From contig CAZLQG010000003.1 in NCBI GenBank assembly GCA_964561655.1, positions 1-35,203 of the forward strand: DNA of 35,203 bases, given 5' to 3'. The position numbers and the translations under genes are program-made. The first letter of the stretch is position 1. Every line of letters starts with the position of its first letter. This document shows, one piece after another, positions 2,297-24,375 of this stretch. The notes below the pieces were generated by a model. It was given only the letters and a program-made list of their open reading frames with translations. It was not told the origin of the DNA and did not search any database. The stretch comes from an uncultured Candidatus Saccharibacteria bacterium. GTDB taxonomy: Bacteria > Patescibacteriota > Doudnabacteria > UBA920.

Positions 2297-4156
2297 ATGT
2301 GCGGAATAGTCGGTTATATCGGTAAAAAACAGGCGGCGCCAATCCTATTGCAGGGTTTGCGCGATTTGGAATACCGCGGTTACGATAGCGCTGGGGTTGC
2401 GCTTCTTGAGAATGATAAGATAGTGCGGATTAGAGCAGTAGGTAAAGTAGAAAAACTTGCGGAGAAATTGCAGAATGACCATAATTTATCCCAAATCGGC
2501 ATAGCTCATACCCGCTGGGCAACGCACGGAGGGGTTACGGAAAAAAACGCGCATCCGCATGTGGCTCAAGATGGCAAACTCGCACTAGTGCATAATGGAA
2601 TTATTGAGAATTATCGTGAACTCAAAGAGCAATTGAGCAGAGAGGGGGTAAAGTTTGAGTCAGAGACGGACACGGAGGTGTTGGCGCATTGGATAGCAAA
2701 GAATTATGAATCAGGAATCAGAAATCAGGAATCAGACAACGGCTCTTTGTTGGCGCGTGCAGTGAAGAAAGCATTGATAAGTGTGAGAGGGACTTATGGC
2801 ATCTTAGTTATGCACGCTGACCATCCGGGCCAGCTTGTGGCGGCGCGGCTAGGAAGCCCCCTGGCCATAGGCATAGGCGAAGGCGAGTATTACATTGCCA
2901 GCGATGTCACACCAATGCTTCCTTACACCAAACAAGTGACCTTTTTGGATGATGGAGAGATAGCGTCAATCAATGAGGAAGGTTTGAAGATTGTAAATTT
3001 GCGCAATCAGATAGTTGATAAAGACATTACTCAGATTGATTGGGATCAAGAAACGGCACAAAGAGGTGGGTTTGAGCATTTTATGCTTAAAGAAATTTTT
3101 GACCAGCCCACCGTGTTTGAGGACGCTATAAGAGGGCGCACGGATATGGATGAAGGCACTGCGCATTTGGGTGGGTTGAATATGACAGCTGAGCAGATGA
3201 GAGAGATTAAAAGGATTGCGATAATTGCGGAAGGCACCGCGCGCCACGCGGGACTTATTGGCAAGTATGCCTTTGAACGTTTGGCGAATTTGCCGGTGGA
3301 AGTAGATTTTTCTTCGGAGTTTAGGTACCGCGATCCGATAGTTAATAAATCCACTTTAGTATTTGCCATTTCCCAGTCCGGAGAAACCGCTGACACGCTT
3401 ATGGCCGCGCGTGAAGCTAAAAGAAAAGGCGCGTTCGTTCGGGGCATTGTTAATGTGATTGGCTCAACAATTGCGCGGGAAAGCGGGGCAGGCACTTACA
3501 TTCACGCCGGGCCGGAACTCGCCGTGGCATCCACCAAGGCTTATACGAATATGGTGGCAATTTTGCTTTTGTACGCTTTGCAGTTTGGCCGGCTTAAGCA
3601 TACGTCAATTGCCACGGGACAAAGAATCCTACAAGCGCTTTTGGCAATCCCAGCGCAGATGAATGTTATGTTAAAGCAGAATGATGAAATTAAAAAAATT
3701 GCTAAAAAATATTCAAAATATAATAATATTCTTTTTCTTGGCCGTGGAGTAAATTATCCGGTCGCTTTGGAAGGCGCGCTTAAGCTCAAAGAAATTTCTT
3801 ATATTCACTGTGAAGCTTTTGCCGGAGGGGAAATGAAGCACGGGCCGCTGGCTTTGGTGACCAAAGACGTGCCTGTAGTGGCAATAATGACTAAAAACCA
3901 GCTTTATGAGAAAATTAAAAGTAACGTTTTAGAAGCAAAGGCGCGCGGAGCTAAAATTTTAGCAATTGCCAGTGGAGGCGATGAGGAAATTAAAGAAGTT
4001 GCGGACGACGTAATCTACGTGCCCAAAACCATGGAACTTTTAGAATCGCTTATTAACACCATCCCTTTGCAGCTGTTTGCTTACCATATTGCCGTTGCAT
4101 TGGGACGGGACGTTGACCGCCCGAGAAATTTAGCTAAAAGTGTAACAGTTGAATAA
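2297..4156 (+). CDS. glmS: glutamine-fructose-6-phosphate aminotransferase
   Basis: MCGIVG, LEYRGYDSAG, HTRWATHG, HNGIIEN, SQSGETADT, VASTKAYT, PRNLAKSVTVE. Confidence 0.98.
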   Translation: MCGIVGYIGKKQAAPILLQGLRDLEYRGYDSAGVALLENDKIVRIRAVGKVEKLAEKLQNDHNLSQIGIAHTRWATHGGVTEKNAHPHVAQDGKLALVHNGIIENYRELKEQLSREGVKFESETDTEVLAHWIAKNYESGIRNQESDNGSLLARAVKKALISVRGTYGILVMHADHPGQLVAARLGSPLAIGIGEGEYYIASDVTPMLPYTKQVTFLDDGEIASINEEGLKIVNLRNQIVDKDITQIDWDQETAQRGGFEHFMLKEIFDQPTVFEDAIRGRTDMDEGTAHLGGLNMTAEQMREIKRIAIIAEGTARHAGLIGKYAFERLANLPVEVDFSSEFRYRDPIVNKSTLVFAISQSGETADTLMAAREAKRKGAFVRGIVNVIGSTIARESGAGTYIHAGPELAVASTKAYTNMVAILLLYALQFGRLKHTSIATGQRILQALLAIPAQMNVMLKQNDEIKKIAKKYSKYNNILFLGRGVNYPVALEGALKLKEISYIHCEAFAGGEMKHGPLALVTKDVPVVAIMTKNQLYEKIKSNVLEAKARGAKILAIASGGDEEIKEVADDVIYVPKTMELLESLINTIPLQLFAYHIAVALGRDVDRPRNLAKSVTVE

Positions 4157-4160
4157 GATT

Positions 4161-4907
4161 ATGAAGAATAAATTTGAACAAACTTCACAACCTATACCGG
4201 AACAGATTAGGGAGAGAATGTTAAAGGAACCAGAATACCTTCCTTCGCATGGTGATATTAGAATTGCTTTTCCCACTCAGAAAGAATGGAGTGATTACAG
4301 AGTAGAGGTAGATTTCCACGAATTATTAAATAAAGAATTTTTGGCAGCATTGTCAGATTATCTAGCGAAAAGGATTACTGCTTACGGTGGGACTAAAGAG
4401 CATCCGGTCGTAATATTAGAAGCAGGGGCAGGCGACGGCCGTTTAACTCATTTTTTGTGCCAAGGATTGGAGGAAAGAACGAAAGGTAAATTTAGAATAG
4501 TGGCAGTAGATATAGGCGAGTGGATACCCAACCCCCCTTTTCCTGTAGAGAATATTGATTATAAAGAAGCTTTAAAAGAACATAAGCCCGCAATAGTTAT
4601 ATGTTCTTGGATGCGTCCAAGGACGGACTGGACGGCAGATTTTAGAGGGCAGAAAAGCGTTAAAGAGTATATCTTAATTGGGGAAAAATATGGCGGGGCT
4701 AGCGGTAGAGACTGGGAGACTTGGGGGGTTAAATTAAATGTAGATTCTGGAGGCCCTATAGAAAGACCAGAAACAGCTCCATATAAGGTTGATGGTTTTG
4801 AGAGTTTCGATCTTGAGGATATTAGCCAACATCAAATAGCTTGTACTGATTATCCTCCCTTGGAGCATGAACATTCACATACAGTTTCTTTTAGGAGAAA
4901 AAGTTAA
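4161..4907 (+). CDS. putative SAM-dependent methyltransferase-fold protein
   Basis: ILEAGAGDGRL motif I followed by IVAVD; ATG 4161 chosen just after the glmS stop. Confidence 0.65.
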   Translation: MKNKFEQTSQPIPEQIRERMLKEPEYLPSHGDIRIAFPTQKEWSDYRVEVDFHELLNKEFLAALSDYLAKRITAYGGTKEHPVVILEAGAGDGRLTHFLCQGLEERTKGKFRIVAVDIGEWIPNPPFPVENIDYKEALKEHKPAIVICSWMRPRTDWTADFRGQKSVKEYILIGEKYGGASGRDWETWGVKLNVDSGGPIERPETAPYKVDGFESFDLEDISQHQIACTDYPPLEHEHSHTVSFRRKS

Positions 4908-4926
4908 TTTTATTTCAATACGAATT

Positions 4927-5991
4927 ATGAAACTTTTTGAATATCAGGGAAAAGAATTATTTCAAAAATATGGGATAGCAGTTCCGAAGAGCCAGCTGAT
5001 TTCGGCGCAGACAGAGAGGGCTTCTCTTGAACCGCCATTTATTTTAAAGGCCCAGGTGCTTTCCGGAAACCGCATGAAAAAAGGCGGTATCGTAGTGGTA
5101 GATAGCGTTAGCGAGTTTGAGAATTTAAAAAATAAGATTTTTAATACCCTAATTGACGGGAGTTTGCCGGAAAAAATATTGCTGGAAGAAAAAATTGAGG
5201 CAAAAAAAGAACTGTATATATCTTTTAGCTACAGTACAGATACCCGAACGCCGGTATTTTCCATTTCCGCCAAAGGAGGGGCCGGAGTAAGCGCGGCTGA
5301 TATTTTTTCAATAGATTTAACGGAAGAACTGACAGATTCTGTCCTGCGGAATTGGCTTGATAAGACTAAAATTTTAGCTTCAGGCGGGTTACTGAAGGCC
5401 ATTCGTTCTTTATGGAAATTATTTTTAGATGAGAAGGCTTTAATTGCGGAAATTAACCCGTTGTTTGAGTTGGACAGCGACGCGTTTGTTGCCGGTGATG
5501 CCAAAATTGTTTTGGACGATAACGCGGTTAATCCGAAGTTCCGGCCCTTTTTGGATTTGGACGGTGATATTGCGGTGCTGGCATCCGGCGGCGGCGCTTC
5601 GCTTATCAACTTGGACGCTTTGCTCAAGCACGGGGGCAGGCCGGCAAATTACGTTGAATATTCCGGCAACCCGCCGGCGTCCGTGGTGGAAGAACTCACA
5701 GTCAAAGTCTTGTCTAAACCGAATTTAAAAGGCTGCTGGGTTATCGGCGGGCTTGCGAACTTTACCGACATTTATGAAACTTTGCTTGGGTTTGTGCAGG
5801 GACTTAAGAAAATTAAACCCCTGCCTTCCTATCCGATTGTTATCCGCAGAGATGGGCCAAGGCAGAAAGAAGCTTATAAAATGCTAAATGAAACGGCGAA
5901 AAAAGAGGGTTTTGACTTTCATTTATATGGACCGGAAATTTCCATGTCGGATTCGGCCGGAATAATGGTTAAATTAGCTTATAACAAATGA
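4927..5991 (+). CDS. ATP-grasp + citrate-binding subunit (ATP-citrate lyase beta / citryl-CoA synthetase large subunit)
   Basis: MKLFEYQGKELF, KAQV, EINPL (SucC/AclB ATP-grasp) plus ACL-type ASGGGAS, ANYVEYSGNP and GGLANFTDI. Confidence 0.85.
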   Translation: MKLFEYQGKELFQKYGIAVPKSQLISAQTERASLEPPFILKAQVLSGNRMKKGGIVVVDSVSEFENLKNKIFNTLIDGSLPEKILLEEKIEAKKELYISFSYSTDTRTPVFSISAKGGAGVSAADIFSIDLTEELTDSVLRNWLDKTKILASGGLLKAIRSLWKLFLDEKALIAEINPLFELDSDAFVAGDAKIVLDDNAVNPKFRPFLDLDGDIAVLASGGGASLINLDALLKHGGRPANYVEYSGNPPASVVEELTVKVLSKPNLKGCWVIGGLANFTDIYETLLGFVQGLKKIKPLPSYPIVIRRDGPRQKEAYKMLNETAKKEGFDFHLYGPEISMSDSAGIMVKLAYNK

Positions 5992-6896
5992 GTATATTAA
6001 TAGATGAAAATACAAAAGTCCTGATTCAGGGTATTACGGGCAAGGAAGGATCACGCGCAGCGGGAGAAATTTTTCGGTACGGCACGCGGGTATTAGCGGG
6101 CGTAACTCCCGGGAAAGGCGGGCAGACCACGGAAATTGGAGCGCCGGTGTTCAACAGTGTGAAGGAAGCCTTGGCAAAATTCCCGGAGATAAATACCAGT
6201 TTAATTGTTGTACCGGCGCCGTTTGTGCTGAGCGCGGCAACAGAAGCTATTGAATGTAAAATACCTTTGATAAATATTTTAACGGAAAAAGTTCCGGTAC
6301 TGGATGTGGCAAAAATTATAAGCTTGGCGCTTCGGGCAGGAGTTAAAGTTGTAGGCCCGAGTTCAGTGGGAATTATTTCTCCCAAAAAAGCAAAAATCGG
6401 CAGTATTGGCAGTTCGGAGCTGGTCCATAAAACTTTTGCTTCCGGCTTTGTGGGAGTTATGTCTAAAAGCGGCGGTATGACAGCGGAAATTTCCAGAATT
6501 TTGACAGAAAGCGGTCTGGGGCAAAGCACTGTCGTGGGGATTGGCGGTGATTTGCTTATTGGTTCGGATTTTGTAGATTTAGCCTTGGAATTTGAAAAAG
6601 ACCCGGAGACTAAAGTGCTGGTAATTTTTGGTGAAGTGGGGGGTTCCTATGAAGAAAAATTGGCGGAGGCAATGCGGCAAAAGAAAATAAAGAAGCCGGT
6701 TGTAGCGTTGATTGCCGGAAGATTTTCTGAAAAATTGCCGCAAGACACCGTGCTGGGGCATGCAGGAGCGATTGTCAGCAAGGGAAAAGGTTCGGCTAAT
6801 TCCAAAATTGCAGCTTTGGAAAAAGCAGGCGCAGTGATTGCGGAAATTCCGGAGGATATTTCTTTATTGGTTAAAAAAATTATTAATGCCAACTAA
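5988..6896 (+). CDS. CoA-binding/phosphohistidine subunit (SucD-like; citryl-CoA synthetase small subunit)
   Basis: QGITGKEG, GVTPGKGG, SKSGGM, GIGGD, GEVGG, GHAGA; ATGA overlap with the upstream gene. Confidence 0.88.
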   Translation: MSILIDENTKVLIQGITGKEGSRAAGEIFRYGTRVLAGVTPGKGGQTTEIGAPVFNSVKEALAKFPEINTSLIVVPAPFVLSAATEAIECKIPLINILTEKVPVLDVAKIISLALRAGVKVVGPSSVGIISPKKAKIGSIGSSELVHKTFASGFVGVMSKSGGMTAEISRILTESGLGQSTVVGIGGDLLIGSDFVDLALEFEKDPETKVLVIFGEVGGSYEEKLAEAMRQKKIKKPVVALIAGRFSEKLPQDTVLGHAGAIVSKGKGSANSKIAALEKAGAVIAEIPEDISLLVKKIINAN

Positions 6897-6897
6897 T

Positions 6898-7602
6898 ATG
6901 AAATTTAAAACAGCCATAAGCCAAACCAAAAACAACAAACACTATATTTGGGGAAAAGATATTTTAGAATTAATGGACAGGCATTCTTTTACTGAAGTTA
7001 TTTTTTTGTTTTTGCGCGGCAGTTTGCCAAAAAAAAATGAACAAGCACTTTTGGAAGCTGTGCTAATTGCCGCCACGGAGAACGGGATAGAAGCGCCGTC
7101 GCTGTTTGTGCCGCGCGTGGTTGCGGCCAGCGGAAATGAATTTCATGCTGCATTGGCCGCAGGCATGCTTTCCATAGGCGAAAAACACGGCGGGGCAGCA
7201 GGAAAAGCCGCAGAGCTGTTTAGCTGCGGCAAAAGCGCGGAGCAGATTGTTAAAGAAAATAAGATTATTCCCGGCTTCGGGCATAAAATGTATAAAGACG
7301 AAGACCCAAGGGCGACTTTGTTGCATCAAAAATCTAAAGATTTAGGCTTTTCGGGGAAGTATTTTGAAATTGCCAAAGAAATTGAGAAAATATTAGCGGA
7401 AAAGAAAGGCAGGGAATTGCCTTTGAATATTGACGGCGCTATGGCTTGCTGTATGTTGGAATTGGGGCTTGATGCCAAACTGGGCAAAGCCTTGTTCTTG
7501 ATCGGCCGCATTGTCGGTATGTCTGCGCACATTTTGGAAGAATACAAGCAGGGGAATAGTTATTATAGGCTGGGGGAAGATGAAATTGAATATCAAGAAT
7601 AA
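6898..7602 (+). CDS. citryl-CoA lyase (citrate synthase-like fold)
   Basis: HGGA, IPGFGH, DPR, LNIDG, GR..G..AH motifs; about 234 aa stand-alone. Confidence 0.85.
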   Translation: MKFKTAISQTKNNKHYIWGKDILELMDRHSFTEVIFLFLRGSLPKKNEQALLEAVLIAATENGIEAPSLFVPRVVAASGNEFHAALAAGMLSIGEKHGGAAGKAAELFSCGKSAEQIVKENKIIPGFGHKMYKDEDPRATLLHQKSKDLGFSGKYFEIAKEIEKILAEKKGRELPLNIDGAMACCMLELGLDAKLGKALFLIGRIVGMSAHILEEYKQGNSYYRLGEDEIEYQE

Positions 7603-7682: not shown

Positions 7683-8858
7683 ATGAAAGCACTAGTTTTC
7701 GATAAATCAAAATCTGACTGGGAAAGCTCGCGCGGGTTTGATTTGGTAAATATTTCGGAGCCAAGCATCAATGAAAAAGAAAACCCCGGCGATGCTAATT
7801 ATGTCATTATTAAAGTCCACTACGCGGGTATTTGTGGCACAGACCGGGGCATTTGGAATAGGCAAGCTTTTAAGGATGCCATTTTAAATACTATAGACGA
7901 ACAAGTAAAAAATGGCGGTAATCCTTATAGAATCATTGGCCATGAATTTTTTGGCGAAGTGGTAAAAGTGGGCAGTAAGGTAAAAAATGTAAAGCCCGGG
8001 GACTTTGTGAGCCAGGAATCTCATGTTGTTTGCAATAACTGCTATCAGTGCAAGCGGGGAGAAAAGCACGTCTGCACTAACGAGAAAATTTTGGGAATTT
8101 CTCACGACGGAGGTTTTTGCGAATATGCTAAAATCCCTTCGTATATTCTCTGGAAAACGGACACCAGTAAGATTCGTCCCGAGATAGCGGCTATGCAGGA
8201 GCCGTTTGGCAATGCAGTACACGCCGCATCTAAAGTAGACGTTAAAGGAAAAACCGTGGCAATTTTTGGCCTTGGTCCGATTGGCATGTTTTTGACAATG
8301 ATAGTTAAAGGCATGGGTGCGTTAAGCATTATTGGCATAGAACCGAACCCGGTGGCGATTGATATGGCTAAAAAGTTGGGGATTGATTACGTGATTCCAT
8401 TGAAGAAAATAGTACACAGTAAACAGTACTCAGCAAAGCCATATCAACATAATCCCGAAGTAACCGATGAGATTATGAAAATTACTAAAGGAATTGGCGT
8501 GGATGTGAGTTTTGAGATGGCAGGCTTTAATGACTCGGTGAACAATGCCATTGCCGGCGTCCGCCGCGGCGGGGAAGTTATTTTGTTCGGCTTGAAAACC
8601 GGGGATTTCGTGTTTGAAGACTATAATAAGTTGGTAATGAAAGGAATTACTATGTACTGCGTGGCGGGCAGGCGGGTTTGGGATACCTGGAAAATCACAA
8701 AAAAATTGTTTGAAGATACGGGAAATAAAATCCAGGAAAATATGTGGAATGTAATCCTGGACCAGGGCAGAGGGACAATTTTACCGATTTCGGAGTATAC
8801 TAAAGACAGGTTTGAACAAATGATGAGCGAGCACCCAAAATTATTAATACAGTTTTAA
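7683..8858 (+). CDS. tdh: Zn-dependent L-threonine 3-dehydrogenase
   Basis: GICGTD, GHE, ESHVVCNNCYQC..C structural Zn site, EPFGNAVH, GLGPIG; kbl nearby. Confidence 0.88.
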   Translation: MKALVFDKSKSDWESSRGFDLVNISEPSINEKENPGDANYVIIKVHYAGICGTDRGIWNRQAFKDAILNTIDEQVKNGGNPYRIIGHEFFGEVVKVGSKVKNVKPGDFVSQESHVVCNNCYQCKRGEKHVCTNEKILGISHDGGFCEYAKIPSYILWKTDTSKIRPEIAAMQEPFGNAVHAASKVDVKGKTVAIFGLGPIGMFLTMIVKGMGALSIIGIEPNPVAIDMAKKLGIDYVIPLKKIVHSKQYSAKPYQHNPEVTDEIMKITKGIGVDVSFEMAGFNDSVNNAIAGVRRGGEVILFGLKTGDFVFEDYNKLVMKGITMYCVAGRRVWDTWKITKKLFEDTGNKIQENMWNVILDQGRGTILPISEYTKDRFEQMMSEHPKLLIQF

Positions 8859-9440: not shown

Positions 9441-10628
9441 ATGTTTACCAATATAAAACAACAATTTGAGGAGGAACTAAAGGCTATTAAAGACGCGGGG
9501 ACGTGGAAAGAGGAGTGGGTTATTTCTTCTGTCCAGGGCGCGGAAATAGAGGCGCAAGGAAAAAAGCTTTTGAATTTTTGCGCGAATAATTATCTTGGCC
9601 TCGCATCTTCCAAAGAGTTGGCCGAGGCTGCCATTGAAGGCGTTAAAAAATACGGCTACGGTATGGCCTCTGTTAGGTTTATTTGCGGTACTTCCACGAT
9701 TCATAAAGATTTGGAAAAAGAAGTATCCAAGTTTTTCGGCACGGAAGATGCTATTTTATATACATCCTGTTTTGACGCTAACACCGGACTTTTTGAGACA
9801 GTTTTAACGGACGAAGACGCAATTTTAAGTGACCAGTTGAACCATGCGTCTATCATAGACGGCGTGCGTTTGTGCAAAGCGGAAAGGTACAGGTATGAAC
9901 ATTTAAATATGAAAGACTTGGAAGAGAAGCTTAAAGAAGCTTCGGGCAAACGAAGGAAACTGATAGCTACTGACGGCGTGTTCAGTATGGACGGTGAGAC
10001 AGCCAAAGTTAAAGAAATTTGCGATTTGGCGGAAAAGTACGGCGCAATGGTGATGGTGGACGACAGTCACGGCAGTGGTGTTTTAGGCGAAAACGGCAGA
10101 GGCGCGGTGGAAGGCTTAATGGACAAAGTGGATATTCTAACATCAACTTTTGGAAAAGCTTTGGGCGGTGCGGGCGGCGGGTTTACCGCAGGAAGGAGAG
10201 AAATTATAGATGTTTTAAGGCAAAGATCGCGTACCGCATTATTTTCCAACGCGCTTCCTCCAATGATAGCTTCAGCGGCCTTGTATGTTTTGCAGAATTT
10301 TGATTCATCGCTTTCGCATCTGCGCAAACAATTAGCCAAGAACATGGCCTACTTCAGAGAAAAAATGGAAAAATTAGGCTTTACTTTGGGAGGAGACGGT
10401 AAACATTCAATTACTCCGGTTATGCTTTATGAAGAGCGCGTGGCTACCGAAATGGCCGACAAGCTTTTTGAAAAAGGCATTTACGTAAAAGGTTTTACCT
10501 ATCCGGTGGTGTCTAAAGGCACCGCGCGTATCCGTGTGCAAATATCGGCGGTTCATACAAAAGAGCAGATGGACAAGACAGTAAGAGCGTTTAAAGTAGT
10601 GGGGAAGGAAATGAAGATAATTAATTAA
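9441..10628 (+). CDS. kbl: glycine C-acetyltransferase (2-amino-3-ketobutyrate CoA ligase)
   Basis: [59 protein letters not shown]. Confidence 0.96.
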
Positions 10629-10743: not shown

Positions 10744-11718
10744 ATGAAGAATATTGTAATAATCGGCGGGGGGACGGGGACATTTACTTTGCTTTCCGGC
10801 CTTCGCAGGTTTCCTACAAATAATTCAGTCATCGTGTCATCAGCTGATGACGGCGGAAGCACAGGCAGGTTAAGATCCGACCTCGGCGTTTTTCCTCCCG
10901 GGGATTTGCGCCAGTGCCTTTTGGGGCTTTCCTATACGGAAAAAGAAATGCAGGACTTGTTTTCCTACCGTTTTGAAAAAGGCGAGCTTAAAGGGCATAC
11001 GGTGGGCAATATAATCTTGTCGGCTTTAAGCAAAACATTGAGAGGAGTTGAACCGGCAATAAAACAGGTGGCTAAAATGTTGAACGTGCGCGGCGAGGTC
11101 GTGCCGGTGACTTTGTTTCCAACCACACTTTCGGCGACTTTAAAGAATGGAAAAAAGATTATCGGAGAGCATAATATTGATGAACCAAAAGTAAAGTCCA
11201 GGCCCCCCATTAAGAATTTAAAACTTTTACCTTCCGCTCCCGCCAACAGAAGGGCTTTGAGGTCTATAAGAAAGGCGGATGTAATTATTTTAGGCCCCGG
11301 GGACTTATTTACCAGCATTTTGCCGAATTTGCTGGTAAAAGGCGTGGGCCAGGCCATGGCCAAATCAAGAGCCAAAAAAGTTTTAGTGGTTAATTTAATG
11401 ACCAAAAAGGGGCAGACCGATGGTTTTACGGTGGCGGATTTCGTAAACACGGTCAATAGATACTTAGGCAAAGCCAAACTGGGTGCGGTCATCATTAACA
11501 GCAAAAAACCCAATTCCGGCATTTTGGCAAAATATAAAAAAGAGGGGGCGAAGTTTATAGAGCCGGACACCAGCCAGTTAAAACGACTGGGCATTATGGT
11601 TATTTCCAAAGATTTGCTCTCTAAAAACGTGTTCAGTAAAGCAAATGGGGATGCTTTGATGAGAAGTTTTCTTAGGCACGATTCAGATAAATTAGCGAAG
11701 ATTATATATAATTTGTAA
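10744..11718 (+). CDS. yvcK: YvcK/GlmR (UPF0052/CofD-like) UDP-GlcNAc-binding protein
   Basis: IGGGTG, DDGGSTGRLR, PPGDLR, GHTVGN, GPGDLFTSILPNL, RHDSDKLA. Confidence 0.93.
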   Translation: MKNIVIIGGGTGTFTLLSGLRRFPTNNSVIVSSADDGGSTGRLRSDLGVFPPGDLRQCLLGLSYTEKEMQDLFSYRFEKGELKGHTVGNIILSALSKTLRGVEPAIKQVAKMLNVRGEVVPVTLFPTTLSATLKNGKKIIGEHNIDEPKVKSRPPIKNLKLLPSAPANRRALRSIRKADVIILGPGDLFTSILPNLLVKGVGQAMAKSRAKKVLVVNLMTKKGQTDGFTVADFVNTVNRYLGKAKLGAVIINSKKPNSGILAKYKKEGAKFIEPDTSQLKRLGIMVISKDLLSKNVFSKANGDALMRSFLRHDSDKLAKIIYNL

Positions 11719-11730
11719 TTTATAAAGTTT

Positions 11731-11841
11731 TGTCATCCCGACCGAGTTCCGACTTGTCGGGACGAGTGGAGGGAACCCTTGTACGTCCTAAGAACAATAT
11801 TTAAGGGATTCCTCGACTCACTATGTTCGCTCGGAATGACA
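11731..11841. repeat. REP/RPE-like palindromic element (TGTCATCCCGA..TCGGAATGACA)
   Basis: Terminal inverted repeats with inner GAGGGAACCCTT/AAGGGATTCCTC stem; related copy at 13192-13273. Confidence 0.8.
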
Positions 11842-11852
11842 GTGGGGATTTT

Positions 11853-12194
11853 ATGAAAACCAGTATAAAAAAATCTATCAAGCAATCGAAAGCCATAAAG
11901 TTTGAAGTTAAAGATGGCAGAAAAACAATAGGCCGCGCGTATTTGTATATCATTAAAAATGATTTGCACAAAAAGCCTTACGGCCTTTTGGAGGATTTGT
12001 TTGTGGAAGAAGCCTACCGAAAGCAAGGATTGGGAACAAAATTATTGATAAAGGTGATTAGTGAAGCAAAAAAGAGAAAGTTATACAAACTCATTGGCAC
12101 GAGCAGGACTTCTAGAATGAAGGCCCATAAATTTTATGAAAAGTATGGTTTTAAAAAATACGGGTACGAGTTCCGCATGAATTTAACCAAATGA
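11853..12194 (+). CDS. GNAT acetyltransferase, GNA1-like (candidate glucosamine-phosphate N-acetyltransferase)
   Basis: GLLEDLFV..YRKQGLG..LYKLI..FYEKYGF; ATGA overlap with the GlmU-like gene. Confidence 0.8.
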   Translation: MKTSIKKSIKQSKAIKFEVKDGRKTIGRAYLYIIKNDLHKKPYGLLEDLFVEEAYRKQGLGTKLLIKVISEAKKRKLYKLIGTSRTSRMKAHKFYEKYGFKKYGYEFRMNLTK

Positions 12195-12925
12195 AAGATC
12201 AAATTATCATTCTGGCGGCGGGGAAAGGCACCCGCCTAAACCACGAAAGCCTGCCTAAGGTTTTAGTGCTTTTTAGGGGACAGCCTTTAATTAAGCATTT
12301 GCTTTTAAGAATTTCCAAAATCATCCAAAGCACAAAACCAATAGTGGTTGTGGGCTTTATGGCAGAAAAAGTAAAAGCCACGTTGGGAAACAGGTTTGAG
12401 TACGTTTTGCAGGAACCGCAGCTTGGCACCGCGCATGCCGTGCGCGCGGCCAAGGAAAAAATAAAAGCGGAAAACGTTTTGGTTTTGTATGGCGATATGC
12501 CTTTTATTACGGAAGGTAGCTTAAGGAAACTAATCAGAATGCATCACGATGAAAAGGCAAACCTTTCCATGTTCACCGCCACCGTGCCGAATTTTGAAAA
12601 TGAATTTGCAGGCTTGTTGCATTATGGCAGAATAATCCGCAGTTTCAACAAAGAATTTGTTAAAATTACGGAATTTAAAGACGCAAGCGACGCAGAGAAA
12701 AACATTAAAGAACTAAATACCGGAATTTATATGTTTAATTCGCAATGGCTGTGGAAAAACATAAAAAAAATTAAAAATAAAAATGTGCAGAAAGAATATT
12801 ATCTTACTGACATCGTGGAAATTGCCATAGAGCAGAAAGAAAAAATATATTCGCTTGCCATAGATCCCAAAGAGGTGATTGGTATAAACAGCAAGGAAGA
12901 CTTGGAGAGAGTGGAATCCCGTTAG
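12191..12925 (+). CDS. glmU: GlmU-like N-acetylglucosamine-1-phosphate uridylyltransferase, N-terminal domain only
   Basis: ILAAGKGTR, LPKVL, QLGTAHA, YGDMP, YGRI, ELNTGIY, EYYLTD, GIN; ends before the hexapeptide acetyltransferase domain. Confidence 0.88.
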   Translation: MKDQIIILAAGKGTRLNHESLPKVLVLFRGQPLIKHLLLRISKIIQSTKPIVVVGFMAEKVKATLGNRFEYVLQEPQLGTAHAVRAAKEKIKAENVLVLYGDMPFITEGSLRKLIRMHHDEKANLSMFTATVPNFENEFAGLLHYGRIIRSFNKEFVKITEFKDASDAEKNIKELNTGIYMFNSQWLWKNIKKIKNKNVQKEYYLTDIVEIAIEQKEKIYSLAIDPKEVIGINSKEDLERVESR

Positions 12926-12991
12926 AAGTCCAATGTGCTTATAACACTTTGGCAATCCCGACTTTAGGTCGGGGTTTACTTCTAAGGGGAT
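12916..12991. repeat. small inverted-repeat element (CCCGTTAGAA family)
   Basis: ATCCCGTTAGAAGT / ACTTCTAAGGGGAT (1 mismatch); internal CCCGAC-TTTAG-GTCGGG hairpin; supplies the glmU TAG stop. Confidence 0.65.
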
Positions 12992-13038
12992 GTGGATATC
13001 ATACGCCCGCCCCTCTTAAGTAAGAGGGGATTTTTATT

Positions 13039-13191: not shown

Positions 13192-13273
13192 TTGCCATCC
13201 CGACCGTAGTGGAGAGATCTCTATAATTATCAGAAATCGTTAGGAGATCCTTCGTTAATATTTAGGATGACAA
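13192..13273. repeat. second, degenerate REP/RPE-like element
   Basis: TTGCCATCCCGACCG..GGATGACAA ends resemble 11731-11841. Confidence 0.7.
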
Positions 13274-13385
13274 AAATAAATTTTTGTCATCTGCCACTGC
13301 CCTGTTAGTTCAGAGGGGCCAGAGGCAGTTGTACACCCCAAATTCAAGGAGGGGTGATGATTTTAGGGAGACAAGGAGAACCGGA

Positions 13386-14624
13386 ATGGTAGAGTTGGGA
13401 ACTTTCCCGAGAATTGATTCACTTCCGCCATACGTATTGGCGGAGGTAACCAGAGAGAAACAAAAATACCGTCATGATCAGCTAGATATCATCGATTTTG
13501 GAATGGGTATACCTGACGGTCCCACACCTCAAATCGTGGTGGACAAGCTGAAGACGGCGGTTGACGACAAACGCAATCATCGCTATTCACAATCCATAGG
13601 GATCCCCATGTTGCGGGTTGAGATAGCGAAACGCTATCAGGCTCGCTACGGCGTCAGATTGGATCCGGATAGCGAAGCCATCGTCAGCATCGGTGCCAAG
13701 GACGCATTGGCCCACCTGCTAATTGCCGTTCTGAATGCCGGCGATGGCGTGGCGACACATTGCCCTTCATATCCTATCCATATGCAGGGGGTGGTATTTG
13801 CCGGTGGCGTGCCGTTTCTGCTGGAGATGCCGAGTCCAGATGAATTTCTTAATCGGCTTCACGACCTGTACCGGATGTTGGCGTGCAAGCCGCGCATGAT
13901 CCTCATCTCTTTCCCGCACAATCCCACAACCCAATGTGTGGAGTTGGACTTCTTTAAGGAGATAGTCCGGTTGGCGCATCAGCATGGTACCATGGTCGTC
14001 CACGACTTCGCCTACGCGGACCTGGGCTTTGACGGTTACCAACCGCCGAGCATGCTTCAAGTCCCGGGAGCGAAGGAAGTGGGCGTGGAGATTTTCTCTT
14101 TGTCCAAGAGCTTCAACATGTCGGGTTGGCGCGTGGGGTTTTGCATTGGCAACCTGAGGATGGTGGAGGCACTGCGGAAGATCAAGAGTTATTTGGATTA
14201 TGGTGTATTCCAACCTATCCAGATCGCGTCCATCATTGCCATGCGACACTGCGAAGAGGACACCCGGCGCATTTGTGCCACGTACCAGAGGCGGCGGGAT
14301 GTGCTCGTTGAAGGACTCAACTCAATCGGCTGGCCAGTTGATAAGCCTAGGGGAACAATGTTTGTCTGGGCACCGATACCAGAGTCTTTTCAAAATATGG
14401 GCTCACTACAGTTCTCGAAGCTTCTTCTGGAGAAGGCGCTTGTGGCTGTTTCCCCTGGTGTGGGTTTTGGACCGTTTGGTGAAGGGTACGTTCGTTTCGC
14501 GCTGATTGAGAACTTTCATCGCACGAGACAAGCCCTCCACAATCTCAAAACAACCTTCAGAGGCTGGGAAAGCCCGCATCCGCGGCGACGACGAAAGCAA
14601 GCCGCTATCGCAGTCTCCACTTGA
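13386..14624 (+). CDS. alaC: class I/II PLP aminotransferase, AlaC/DapL-like
   Basis: LPPYV, IDFGMG.PD, YPIH, FPHNPT, HDFAY, SLSKSFNMSGWRVGF, KSYLDYG; ATG preceded by AAGGAG. Confidence 0.82.
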   Translation: MVELGTFPRIDSLPPYVLAEVTREKQKYRHDQLDIIDFGMGIPDGPTPQIVVDKLKTAVDDKRNHRYSQSIGIPMLRVEIAKRYQARYGVRLDPDSEAIVSIGAKDALAHLLIAVLNAGDGVATHCPSYPIHMQGVVFAGGVPFLLEMPSPDEFLNRLHDLYRMLACKPRMILISFPHNPTTQCVELDFFKEIVRLAHQHGTMVVHDFAYADLGFDGYQPPSMLQVPGAKEVGVEIFSLSKSFNMSGWRVGFCIGNLRMVEALRKIKSYLDYGVFQPIQIASIIAMRHCEEDTRRICATYQRRRDVLVEGLNSIGWPVDKPRGTMFVWAPIPESFQNMGSLQFSKLLLEKALVAVSPGVGFGPFGEGYVRFALIENFHRTRQALHNLKTTFRGWESPHPRRRRKQAAIAVST

Positions 14625-15399: not shown

Positions 15400-16245
15400 A
15401 TGTCCAGAGAACGACTTACAATTACGCTTAAAGACGAGCTTTTGAAGGCCTTAGACAGCCAGATTGACGGACATCGTTTAAGGAACAGAAGCCACGCGAT
15501 TGAGTACTTTTTGTCCAAAAGCCTTGGGGGAAAACCTGCTAAGGTTTTAATTTTGGCCGGCGGCAAAGCGGTTTATTTTGCGTCCGAAAAAAAGAGCTTG
15601 CCTAAGGCCATGGTCAAAATCGCGGGCAAGCCGCTTTTGGAACAGGTTTTGCTGAAACTCAAGAATTTCAAATTAACCGATGTTTGGATTTCCGTGGGAG
15701 AAGGCGGTGAAACCATTAAACAGCACTTTCAGGATGGCTCGGACTTGGGGCTTAACATCAATTATCTGGATCAACCGAAAGGCTGCAAAGGCACGGCGCA
15801 GGCTTTGCTCCAGGCCAAGGATATTGTGGGCTCGGGCAGTTTTGTTTTGCTTTACGGGGACGTTTTAAGCGACATTGATTTCAATGAATTTTTGGAATTC
15901 CACCGCAACCAGAGGGGGGAAGTCTGCACCATGGCTTTGACAGTGGCCGAAAGCGTTTCCATGTGGGGTTTGGCCCAGCTGAACGGGAGTCGCATAGTGA
16001 GTTTTGAGGAGAAACCCAAAAGCCCGAGAACGTTTTCCAGGCTGGTGAATGCCGGCATCTATGCAATGGAGCCGGAAATTTTTAAATACATAAAATCCGA
16101 TGAAGCCAAGCTGGAAGCTGTCGTGTTTCCGCGCCTGGCGGAAGAGGGTAAGCTGTACGGGTATCCGTTTAAAGGCTTATGGCTGGATATAAGTAATAGC
16201 GCGGCGTATAAGCAGGCGCTAAAAGAAATTTCCAATCTCCAATAG
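15400..16245 (+). CDS. ribbon-helix-helix DNA-binding domain fused to a sugar-phosphate nucleotidyltransferase-like domain
   Basis: RLTITL..L..LD..I....NRSHAIE (CopG/NikR-type RHH), then ILAGG, LPKAM, GTAQAL, YGD, FEEKP, VNAGIY, WLDI. Confidence 0.85.
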   Translation: MSRERLTITLKDELLKALDSQIDGHRLRNRSHAIEYFLSKSLGGKPAKVLILAGGKAVYFASEKKSLPKAMVKIAGKPLLEQVLLKLKNFKLTDVWISVGEGGETIKQHFQDGSDLGLNINYLDQPKGCKGTAQALLQAKDIVGSGSFVLLYGDVLSDIDFNEFLEFHRNQRGEVCTMALTVAESVSMWGLAQLNGSRIVSFEEKPKSPRTFSRLVNAGIYAMEPEIFKYIKSDEAKLEAVVFPRLAEEGKLYGYPFKGLWLDISNSAAYKQALKEISNLQ

Positions 16246-24283: not shown

Positions 24284-24375
24284 GGAAGGATCGCATAGTG
24301 GTCTAGTGCGGCTGCTTGGAGAGCAGCTAACGGGGTCAAACCCGTTCGAGGGTTCGAATCCCTCTCCTTCCGCCA
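24284..24375 (+). tRNA. tRNA-Ser (GGA)
   Basis: Acceptor GGAAGGA/TCCTTCC, anticodon arm GCTGC-TTGGAGA-GCAGC, long variable arm, GGTTCGAATCC, encoded G-CCA. Confidence 0.96.

Follow-up and report, generated by a model that had tools for sequence, protein, structure and literature searches.

A GNA1-related mini-GNAT as a candidate replacement for the acetyltransferase half of GlmU in Patescibacteria

Textbook bacteria acetylate glucosamine phosphate with the second half of GlmU, and this protein is treated both as an antibiotic target and as the way in which all bacteria, of necessity, arrive at UDP-N-acetylglucosamine (UDP-GlcNAc). Mimivirus acetylates glucosamine 6-phosphate (GlcN-6P) with a protein of the GNAT family. 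Here we describe a small GNAT, called mini-GNAT in the following, whose gene directly precedes a shortened glmU gene. Both genes lie on a stretch of 35,203 nucleotides (the window) from an uncultured Candidatus Saccharibacteria bacterium (GTDB lineage Patescibacteriota, Doudnabacteria, UBA920; assembly GCA_964561655.1, contig CAZLQG010000003.1, positions 1 to 35,203, forward strand). The homologues of the window genes bear Doudnabacteria or Patescibacteria names. We suggest that mini-GNAT is probably the glucosamine-phosphate N-acetyltransferase of UDP-GlcNAc synthesis and replaces the lost left-handed beta-helix (LbH) half of GlmU.

Eukaryotic GNA1 (EC 2.3.1.4; structures 1I12/1I1D, 3I3G, 2VEZ, 3T90 and 4AG7) shares with mini-GNAT the GNAT fold with its Q-G-L-G loop, the E-D pair on strand beta4, the "YK" lysine on beta5, the tyrosine of "FYEK.GF" and an arginine of the C-terminal strand. 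Its place in the pathway, directly after GlcN-6P synthase, is also the one that we propose for mini-GNAT. However, GNA1 proteins have 150-190 residues whereas mini-GNAT has about 110 and is devoid of beta1-alpha1-alpha2 and of the conserved N-terminal "GFL..L..L" segment. Unlike eukaryotic GNA1, mini-GNAT comes from bacteria or archaea, and its gene is linked to yvcK and to the gene for a GlmU that consists of the N-terminal domain only (GlmU-N). To bifunctional GlmU (TIGR01173) the likeness lies in the uridylyltransferase domain, and the gene pair found here would supply both GlmU activities. The acetyltransferase of GlmU is, however, a trimeric LbH (hexapeptide) domain, whereas here an unrelated GNAT with a gene of its own would do this job. 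GlmA of Clostridium acetobutylicum acts on free glucosamine or glucosaminides. This bacterial amino-sugar GNAT (5KF1/5KGA) matches mini-GNAT with E values of 2e-5 to 1e-7 and a Z score of 12.8, but it is a two-domain protein of 328 residues and stands outside the context of UDP-GlcNAc de novo synthesis.

Two reports come closer to the situation described here. According to the NagU preprint, some bacteria have only the N-terminal domain of GlmU, which implies an "unidentified acetyltransferase", and other species have separate GlmU N and C domains (bioRxiv 10.64898/2026.06.23.733835). The latter resemble two genomes of our sample, G101 and G209 (see below). The passage on these bacteria names no candidate enzyme, and the species it treats carry NagU and belong to the Planctomycetota, the PVC group and the Clostridia, not to the Patescibacteria. 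In Apicomplexa, a divergent GNAT lineage is reported to have taken over glucosamine-phosphate acetylation and was recognised only via context and complementation (PMC5838249). As far as this source describes it, the apicomplexan enzyme is of full length or longer and has few of the canonical GNA1 residues, whereas mini-GNAT is truncated and has kept them. In the literature on GlmU or GNA1 in Patescibacteria, the candidate phyla radiation (CPR) or DPANN archaea we found no account of the enzyme described here.

An earlier reading of the window, made from the sequence alone, had proposed that GlmU ends after the uridylyltransferase domain and overlaps the GNAT gene by ATGA. Both statements hold. 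The GlmU models NF010934 (224 bits) and TIGR01173 (210 bits) match the protein over positions 2-240 of about 450, both under their full-length cut-offs, and Pfam finds NTP_transferase domains only. The protein thus has the uridylyltransferase domain of GlmU, and it ends at residue 244 without the C-terminal beta-helix. In the sequence AAATGAAAG at 12189-12197 the glmU-N start codon (12191-12193) overlaps the TGA of the GNAT gene (12192-12194), which suggests that the two genes are translationally coupled. Directly upstream of mini-GNAT lies a gene for a full-length YvcK/GlmR protein scoring above the curated cut-off, and GlmS is encoded on the same strand 7.7 kb upstream of mini-GNAT. The coordinates are collected in Table 1.

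Table 1. Genes and sequence elements at the mini-GNAT locus; positions refer to the window unless a locus of a relative is named
Feature	Position	Strand	Details
Mini-GNAT acetyltransferase	11853..12194	+	113 aa; open reading frame, Pfam, family alignment, AlphaFold model
GlmU uridylyltransferase (N-terminal) domain only	12191..12925	+	244 aa; LAAGKGTRL nucleotide-binding motif; without LbH
ATGA start/stop overlap, GNAT/glmU-N	12191..12194	+	read from sequence
YvcK/GlmR (CofD-related, UDP-GlcNAc-binding)	10744..11718	+	TIGR01826, 319.8 bits (cut-off 196), positions 1-307 of 310
GlmS (glutamine--fructose-6-phosphate transaminase), GlcN-6P source	2297..4156	+	TIGR01135, 788 bits, over cut-off
Terminator-like hairpin and T-run	13010..13029	+	consensus match only; 85 nt past glmU-N
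Citryl-CoA synthetase-like subunits	4867-5991, 5988-6896	+	Pfam ATP-grasp_2 and Citrate_bind; CoA_binding and Ligase_CoA
Citryl-CoA lyase	6838-7602	+	NF004869, 215 bits (cut-off 212)
Threonine dehydrogenase-like gene	7683-8858	+	NF003808, 257 bits, under cut-off (380)
Glycine C-acetyltransferase Kbl	9441-10628	+	NF005394, 591 bits (cut-off 460)
HAD hydrolase, relatives	L009 3327-4001; L011 3321-3995; L014 3324-3986; L042 3288-3962		

A full-length GlmU elsewhere in the genome would have spoken against a displacement. We searched the whole assembly (830,723 bp in 45 contigs, rated 95.5% complete) and found no second GlmU; the four further matches to TIGR01173 are N-terminal nucleotidyltransferase domains. 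Nor does any protein of this genome match the hexapeptide model PF00132 of the LbH fold, for which all 14 control genomes were positive. Mini-GNAT is the sole match to PF00583 in the assembly. MurA is present (328 bits), as is one alpha-phosphohexomutase of the phosphomannomutase/phosphoglucomutase (PMM/PGM) type (CpsG 378, Arch_GlmM 319 and GlmM 155 bits, all under the cut-offs). From this inventory it follows that the organism makes GlcN-6P, consumes UDP-GlcNAc and has one recognisable acetyl-CoA-dependent N-acetyltransferase. PF01704, the NagU/UDPGP family with the eukaryote-type UDP-GlcNAc pyrophosphorylase, has no match in this genome, but as none of the control genomes was positive either, this negative carries no information.

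The reading frame of mini-GNAT could also start at an upstream ATG (11823..12194, + strand, 123 residues). The internal ATG at 11853 is the likely start because the homologues mostly have 107-113 residues and a GGGGA at 11844-11848, 5-9 nucleotides in front of it, fits as well. PF00583 (Acetyltransf_1) matches with 54.1 bits (cut-off 20.7) over profile positions 38-116 of 116; only generic GNAT models match, and they do so over their second two-thirds. The GNAT motifs that had been recognised by eye (GLLEDLFV, YRKQGLG, LYKLI and FYEKYGF) are all found in the translation. The acetyl-CoA core of the fold, beta4-alpha3-beta5 with Q/R-x-x-G-x-G/A, is present as R56-K-Q-G-L-G61, and R56, G59 and G61 are invariant in 20 aligned family members. 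The AlphaFold model (mean pLDDT 93.4) contains strands beta2-beta7 and helices alpha3-alpha4, with beta2 starting at residue 13, beta4 at 43-51, alpha3 at 53-74 and beta5 at 79-83. The first 40 or so residues of a complete GNAT fold of about 140-180 residues, that is, beta1-alpha1-alpha2, are absent, and structures aligned to mini-GNAT are covered from about their residue 36-60 on. Among 169 candidates, 162 are homologues at E<=1e-3, and the 20 aligned members have a mean column identity of 62% and 19 invariant columns. Judged by the homologues, the invariant columns and the confident model, mini-GNAT is a real conserved gene and not a chance open reading frame. We found no fused forms among proteins of 199-2000 residues at E<=1e-8, which is weak evidence. 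The ESM Atlas lists unnamed "GNAT family" clusters of 102-134 residues from CPR, DPANN, Pseudomonadota, Bacteroidota, Bacillota and phages, which gave no functional lead.

The relation to GNA1 emerges when the family and not the single protein is used as query. In the family-profile search of the PDB an uncharacterised GNAT (2dxq) ranks first, Trypanosoma brucei GNA1 second (1.8e-11) and a polyamine acetyltransferase third; yeast GNA1 follows at ranks 5-7 (1.4e-8), and the enzymes of Arabidopsis, Aspergillus and C. elegans are found too. The entries 3FB3/3I3G are reported as the trypanosomal enzyme, TbGNA1 (PMC4964394). The match to GNA1 spans beta4 to the C-terminus, and the alignments reach the very C-terminal "..E.RLDL". 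Furthermore, one genome of our sample (G013; L098 2381-2806, C1) encodes a 141-residue GNAT directly downstream of glmS, for which a PDB search gives eukaryotic GNA1s in all of the first nine distinct places, with E values from 1.4e-24 to 5e-18, before the values drop to 1.8e-8. Thus, full-length GNA1 orthologues exist in Patescibacteria. Mini-GNAT is 34% identical to this protein over 68 residues (E 9e-12), again from beta4 to the shared C-terminus. The alignment begins at residue 77 of the G013 protein, or at about residue 41 when ungapped (G018, G217).

The residues that bind the substrate in GNA1 have been kept. The 6-phosphate is reported to be bound by K136 and R164 and the sugar by E104 and D105 in the C. 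elegans enzyme (PMC3413214), and Y143 is described as crucial in the yeast enzyme (PMC4964394); we deduced the offset between the two numberings from these two papers. In the alignment, E98 and D99 of yeast GNA1 correspond to E47 and D48 of mini-GNAT, Q109-G-L-G to Q58-G-L-G, the phosphate-binding K130 to K79, the catalytic Y143 to Y95 and the C-terminal arginine to R108. E47, K79, Y95 and R108 are invariant in the 20 sequences and D48 is at least 90% conserved. R108 aligns with the arginine of TbGNA1 and the CPR GNA1; in the yeast and worm enzymes the arginine stands two residues later. The N-terminal alpha1-alpha2 segment, which all solved GNA1s and the CPR orthologue possess, is missing from mini-GNAT, and no remnant of it is encoded upstream of the gene. 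In two genomes (G018, G154) a tblastn match seemed to extend through a stop codon, as if the missing N-terminus were encoded further upstream, for example at the 3′ end of yvcK; on inspection there was no real similarity and we rejected this idea. The earlier description of the protein as GNA1-like therefore stands with respect to kinship and to the sugar-binding, phosphate-binding and catalytic residues. It does not stand with respect to architecture, on which membership in GNA1 proper fails, nor is GNA1 the best match of the single sequence.

We then asked how mini-GNAT is distributed in the phylum and examined an even sample of 301 Patescibacteria genomes, each with a completeness of 80% or more. 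GlmU-like matches were counted at E<=1e-25, and mini-GNAT carriers at a threshold of at least 92.9 bits, the next match having 60.8 bits. Not one of the 301 genomes contains a GlmU above the full-length cut-off. GlmU-like matches occur in 69 genomes, most of them in reading frames of about 245-285 codons with the N domain only. Together with the lack of LbH in the genome under study this bears out the proposal that the acetyltransferase half of bifunctional GlmU is missing. Mini-GNAT is found in 23 genomes, which belong to 10 families. GlmS is found in 144, LbH in 68 and YvcK in 155 (a tally that includes G150, a genome flagged as unpublished which does not carry mini-GNAT). All 23 mini-GNAT genomes have GlmS, as against 121 of the 278 others, and none of the 157 genomes without GlmS has mini-GNAT. 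GlmU-N is present in 20/23 carriers versus 49/278 others, so the co-occurrence with GlmU-N expected in relatives is indeed found, and LbH in 5/23 versus 63/278. YvcK was matched in 20 of the 23, the remaining three being G229, G196 and G036. GlmS and GlmU-N occur together in 34 genomes, of which 20 carry mini-GNAT, 12 carry LbH (four carry both) and six carry neither; in the 35 genomes with GlmU-N but without GlmS, mini-GNAT does not occur. In the family of our organism, four genomes combine GlmS, GlmU-N and the GNAT, five have GlmU-N only, a further one has just GlmS, and another lacks all three genes. GlmU-N without GlmS or GNAT, as in these five, is the pattern expected for the salvage of GlcNAc. 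The GNAT gene lies on the same contig within 10 kb of glmS in 9/23 genomes.

The gene order was analyzed in a scan with one genome per species, which gave 214 relatives of mini-GNAT; 80 public loci were kept. The labels of the relatives are Patescibacteria (Doudna-, Magasanik-, Uhr- and Parcubacteria) and DPANN archaea (Woese- and Aenigmarchaeota). A YvcK/GlmR homologue lies directly upstream of mini-GNAT in 56 loci, and the upstream reading frames form one cluster in 55/79 loci. GlmS is encoded at most 3 kb upstream in 42/80. GlmU-N follows within 3 kb downstream in only 11/80 and is thus a minority arrangement. GlmS, GlmU-N or a mutase is found near mini-GNAT in 52/80 loci. The commonest cassette is therefore glmS-yvcK-miniGNAT, whereas the order yvcK-GNAT-glmU-N is typical of the closest relatives. 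The earlier emphasis on the adjacency of glmU-N has to be given up, since the conserved neighbours are yvcK and glmS. Otherwise the genes directly 3′ to mini-GNAT are diverse. In six loci a citrate-lyase-like ATP-grasp gene takes this position, and in four close relatives a gene for a HAD-family hydrolase with weak matches to phosphoglycolate phosphatase and PpaX pyrophosphatase lies between mini-GNAT and glmU-N (Table 1).

The close association with yvcK raises another possibility, namely that mini-GNAT is a protein lysine acetyltransferase which regulates YvcK/GlmR or GlmS and thereby tunes the flux to UDP-GlcNAc. YvcK is the tightest neighbour, which speaks for a regulator and against a sugar-phosphate enzyme, and co-occurrence with GlmS would be expected of a YvcK or GlmS regulator too. 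For Bacillus subtilis, acetylation of GlmR at K296 has been reported to have functional effects, and which acetyl donor or enzyme is responsible is given as unknown (PMC13046274). The open acceptor site of small GNATs without alpha1-alpha2 could suit a protein substrate, and the best NCBIfam match of mini-GNAT is RimI, far below the threshold (41 bits, cut-off 86). A regulator would, however, leave a genome with GlmS, GlmU-N and MurA but without an amino-sugar acetyltransferase, and it does not account for the conserved substrate-binding residues of GNA1 nor for the three of 23 mini-GNAT genomes in which YvcK gave no match. A complex prediction for YvcK and mini-GNAT scored 0.00 in both runs, which counts neither for nor against binding.

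Most telling are two loci with archaeal labels, since YvcK is absent from the 3-kb flanks of both. In L062 (2342-4394, contig labelled Aenigmatarchaeota) mini-GNAT is inserted between the GATase and the SIS genes of a split glmS (the GATase half scores 247 bits over model positions 1-217 and the SIS half 290 bits over 220-600). In L077 the order is GlmM (578 bits, cut-off 447.55), mini-GNAT and an archaeal-type GlmU, of which only the N domain is present (positions 1-227 of 393). There the GNAT gene has stayed with the halves of glmS, with glmM and with glmU-N in the absence of YvcK. In addition, genome G101 (L096 1864-4556) has a stand-alone LbH protein between yvcK and glmU-N, which corresponds to the C half of Arch_glmU (215 bits). 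GlmU of G101 is thus split, because the LbH half and glmU-N are separate genes. The slot of mini-GNAT is occupied in this genome by another enzyme, an LbH sugar acetyltransferase, and this equivalence of genomic slots supports the displacement and again is at odds with a regulator of YvcK. We therefore consider a regulatory role improbable and hold to mini-GNAT as a sugar-phosphate enzyme. A second stand-alone LbH gene (G209, L095 1836-2450) lies 5′ of a citrate-lyase-like ATP-grasp gene of the same kind as is found 3′ to mini-GNAT in the six loci mentioned above. The stand-alone LbH acetyltransferases of G101 and G209 have 204-220 residues and resemble the C half of GlmU or Arch_glmU. We also observed fusions of the GlmU N domain with a complete Mur ligase, with either partner coming first, in three loci (L088 1241-3295 of G224, L089 795-2855 of G032 and L090 903-2903 of G209). 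These fusions tie the GlmU N-domain to the synthesis of peptidoglycan precursors.

Several other observations weigh against our assignment. The segment beta1-alpha1-alpha2, which helps to form the acceptor site in ordinary GNATs, is lacking in mini-GNAT, and so is the N-terminal "GFLETLSNL" of the full-length CPR GNA1. The PDB search with the single sequence is led by AAC(3)-XI and a polyamine acetyltransferase, and yeast GNA1 appears only at E ~1e-3. Fold searches (Foldseek against the PDB and a second look) return a flat list of generic GNATs with Z scores of 12-14 in which GNA1 is not singled out. In the comparison with GNA1 that the sequence-only reading had called for, the profile search places GNA1s among the best matches but not at their head, and the fold searches give generic GNATs only. 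In 28 of the 80 loci no gene of the pathway is near. The family is patchy: 121 genomes with GlmS are without mini-GNAT, 70 of the 301 genomes have GlmS but none of GlmU-N, mini-GNAT and LbH at the thresholds used, and six with GlmS and GlmU-N lack both the GNAT and LbH (G029, G053, G130, G159, G236 and G276). Fisher values overstate the significance of the co-occurrence because the sampled genomes are related; a better guide is that the carriers come from 10 families.

Some of these points would suit a GNAT that has nothing to do with amino sugars, for example a RimI-like N-terminal acetyltransferase or an acetyltransferase of small-molecule amines, carried as a passenger in a conserved operon. 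The generic Pfam, NCBIfam and fold matches, the aminoglycoside and polyamine acetyltransferases at the top of the single-sequence search, the loci without pathway genes nearby and the clusters of similar size in other phyla and in phages are what one would expect of such a protein. It would leave unexplained, however, why mini-GNAT is restricted to genomes with GlmS (23/23, and 0/157 without GlmS), why it is inserted within a split glmS and why lysine, arginine, glutamate and tyrosine of the GNA1 type are invariant. We regard a passenger as very improbable. The patchy distribution tells us that mini-GNAT is not the sole solution in the phylum, and further, other solutions may exist in genomes with GlmS but without a recognised acetyltransferase. 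Full-length GNA1 as a general answer for these genomes was considered and rejected, as copies are found in only five of the 301.

The replacement of the LbH domain of GlmU by a GNA1-related mini-GNAT is thus a non-orthologous displacement that is well supported by gene content, gene order, slot equivalence, homology and residue conservation. The sequence-only reading had gone further and had proposed a hybrid pathway; here the displacement holds, whereas the eukaryote-style route via GlcN-6P is unproven. We suggest that UDP-GlcNAc synthesis could proceed in these steps. First, GlmS would make GlcN-6P. Then mini-GNAT would transfer the acetyl group from acetyl-CoA to the amino group, most likely of GlcN-6P and less likely of glucosamine 1-phosphate (GlcN-1P). 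Next, the single PMM/PGM-type mutase would shift the phosphate. The resulting GlcNAc-1P would be uridylylated by the N-only GlmU, possibly aided by YvcK/GlmR, and finally UDP-GlcNAc would be consumed by MurA. YvcK/GlmR has been reported to bind UDP-GlcNAc and to stimulate GlmS (PMC7525490, PMC6171935) and to act as an accessory uridyltransferase (PMC10128056), and since these roles are reported the presence of yvcK in the cassette fits the pathway.

The step order depends on the substrate of mini-GNAT. If this were GlcN-1P, the GNAT would do exactly what the LbH domain does elsewhere, and the steps would follow each other as in other bacteria (GlmS, mutase, acetylation, uridylylation). A bona fide GlmM scores above the cut-off in four of the 22 other mini-GNAT genomes, in G229 even beside glmS, and in L077 mini-GNAT sits between such a GlmM and the N-only archaeal GlmU; these five contexts argue against a strictly GNA1-type order of steps. 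Moreover, the LbH protein in the slot of G101 is of the enzyme type that acts on GlcN-1P, and the loss of the N-terminal GNA1 segment could accompany an altered acceptor site. On the other hand, mini-GNAT has retained the sugar-binding and 6-phosphate-binding residues of GNA1 without variation, and in L062 its gene lies inside glmS, whose product makes GlcN-6P. Our genome has no GlmM above the cut-off, and in 18 of the 22 other carriers GlmM is below the cut-off or unmatched: 16 have a generic PMM/PGM-type mutase only and two (G200, G162) gave no match at E<=1e-20. The five genomes with full-length GNA1 likewise all have a generic PMM/PGM-type mutase only and no true GlmM. We therefore place GlcN-6P ahead of GlcN-1P as the most likely substrate, though not by much; that GlcN-1P is acetylated with the bacterial order kept appears rather unlikely.

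It is tempting to extend the GlcN-6P route beyond the organism studied here. Patescibacteria and some DPANN archaea may make UDP-GlcNAc without a bifunctional GlmU by means of a glmS-yvcK-miniGNAT cassette with or without glmU-N, in which a GNA1 of about 110 residues acetylates GlcN-6P in the eukaryote-type order and YvcK/GlmR and/or GlmU-N carries out the uridylylation. We put this broad picture forward tentatively and regard it as doubtful as a whole. If it held, prokaryotic GNA1-type enzymes would be old, because full-length GNA1 orthologues also occur in the phylum, and no smaller functional sugar-phosphate GNAT than the mini form would be known.

The genes between glmS and yvcK could contribute to the same purpose. 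By their family assignments, the citryl-CoA synthetase-like subunits together with citryl-CoA lyase would cleave citrate and yield acetyl-CoA, and the threonine dehydrogenase-like protein together with Kbl would convert threonine to glycine and acetyl-CoA. Both gene sets may thus supply the co-substrate of the GNAT. Downstream, the terminator-like hairpin likely ends the yvcK-GNAT-glmU-N transcription unit. The octamer ATCCCGAC occurs three times in the window (11735-11742, 12955-12962 and 13197-13204; 0.48 expected by chance). Two of the copies lie within short CCCGAC...GTCGGG hairpins, and the first two copies flank the GNAT-glmU-N pair. Further on, the window encodes an aminotransferase that resembles alanine or LL-diaminopimelate aminotransferase (13284-14624, 514 bits, under the cut-off) and has an arginine-rich N-terminal extension; its gene lies in the most GC-rich part of the window (0.50, compared with about 0.42). 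A second sugar-1-phosphate nucleotidyltransferase (15400-16245, 281 residues) has a Pfam match from residue 48 on and hence an N-terminal extension of about 45 residues. The RNA genes of the window are the 3′ end of the 23S rRNA (1-388), the 5S rRNA (633-748) and a tRNA-Ser(GGA) (24284-24375).

In summary, mini-GNAT is a concrete and clonable candidate for the "unidentified acetyltransferase" of the NagU preprint (10.64898/2026.06.23.733835). If the assignment is true, it would close a gap in what has been reconstructed of the metabolism of ultra-small symbiotic bacteria and archaea, and organisms which make amino sugars de novo (GlmS and GNAT) could be told apart from those which salvage GlcNAc (GlmU-N only). 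It would define a minimal GNAT scaffold for the acetylation of sugar phosphates, and it would place GNA1-type chemistry in prokaryotes. Should the prokaryotic GNA1-type enzymes be old, they could have implications for how the hexosamine pathway of eukaryotes arose.

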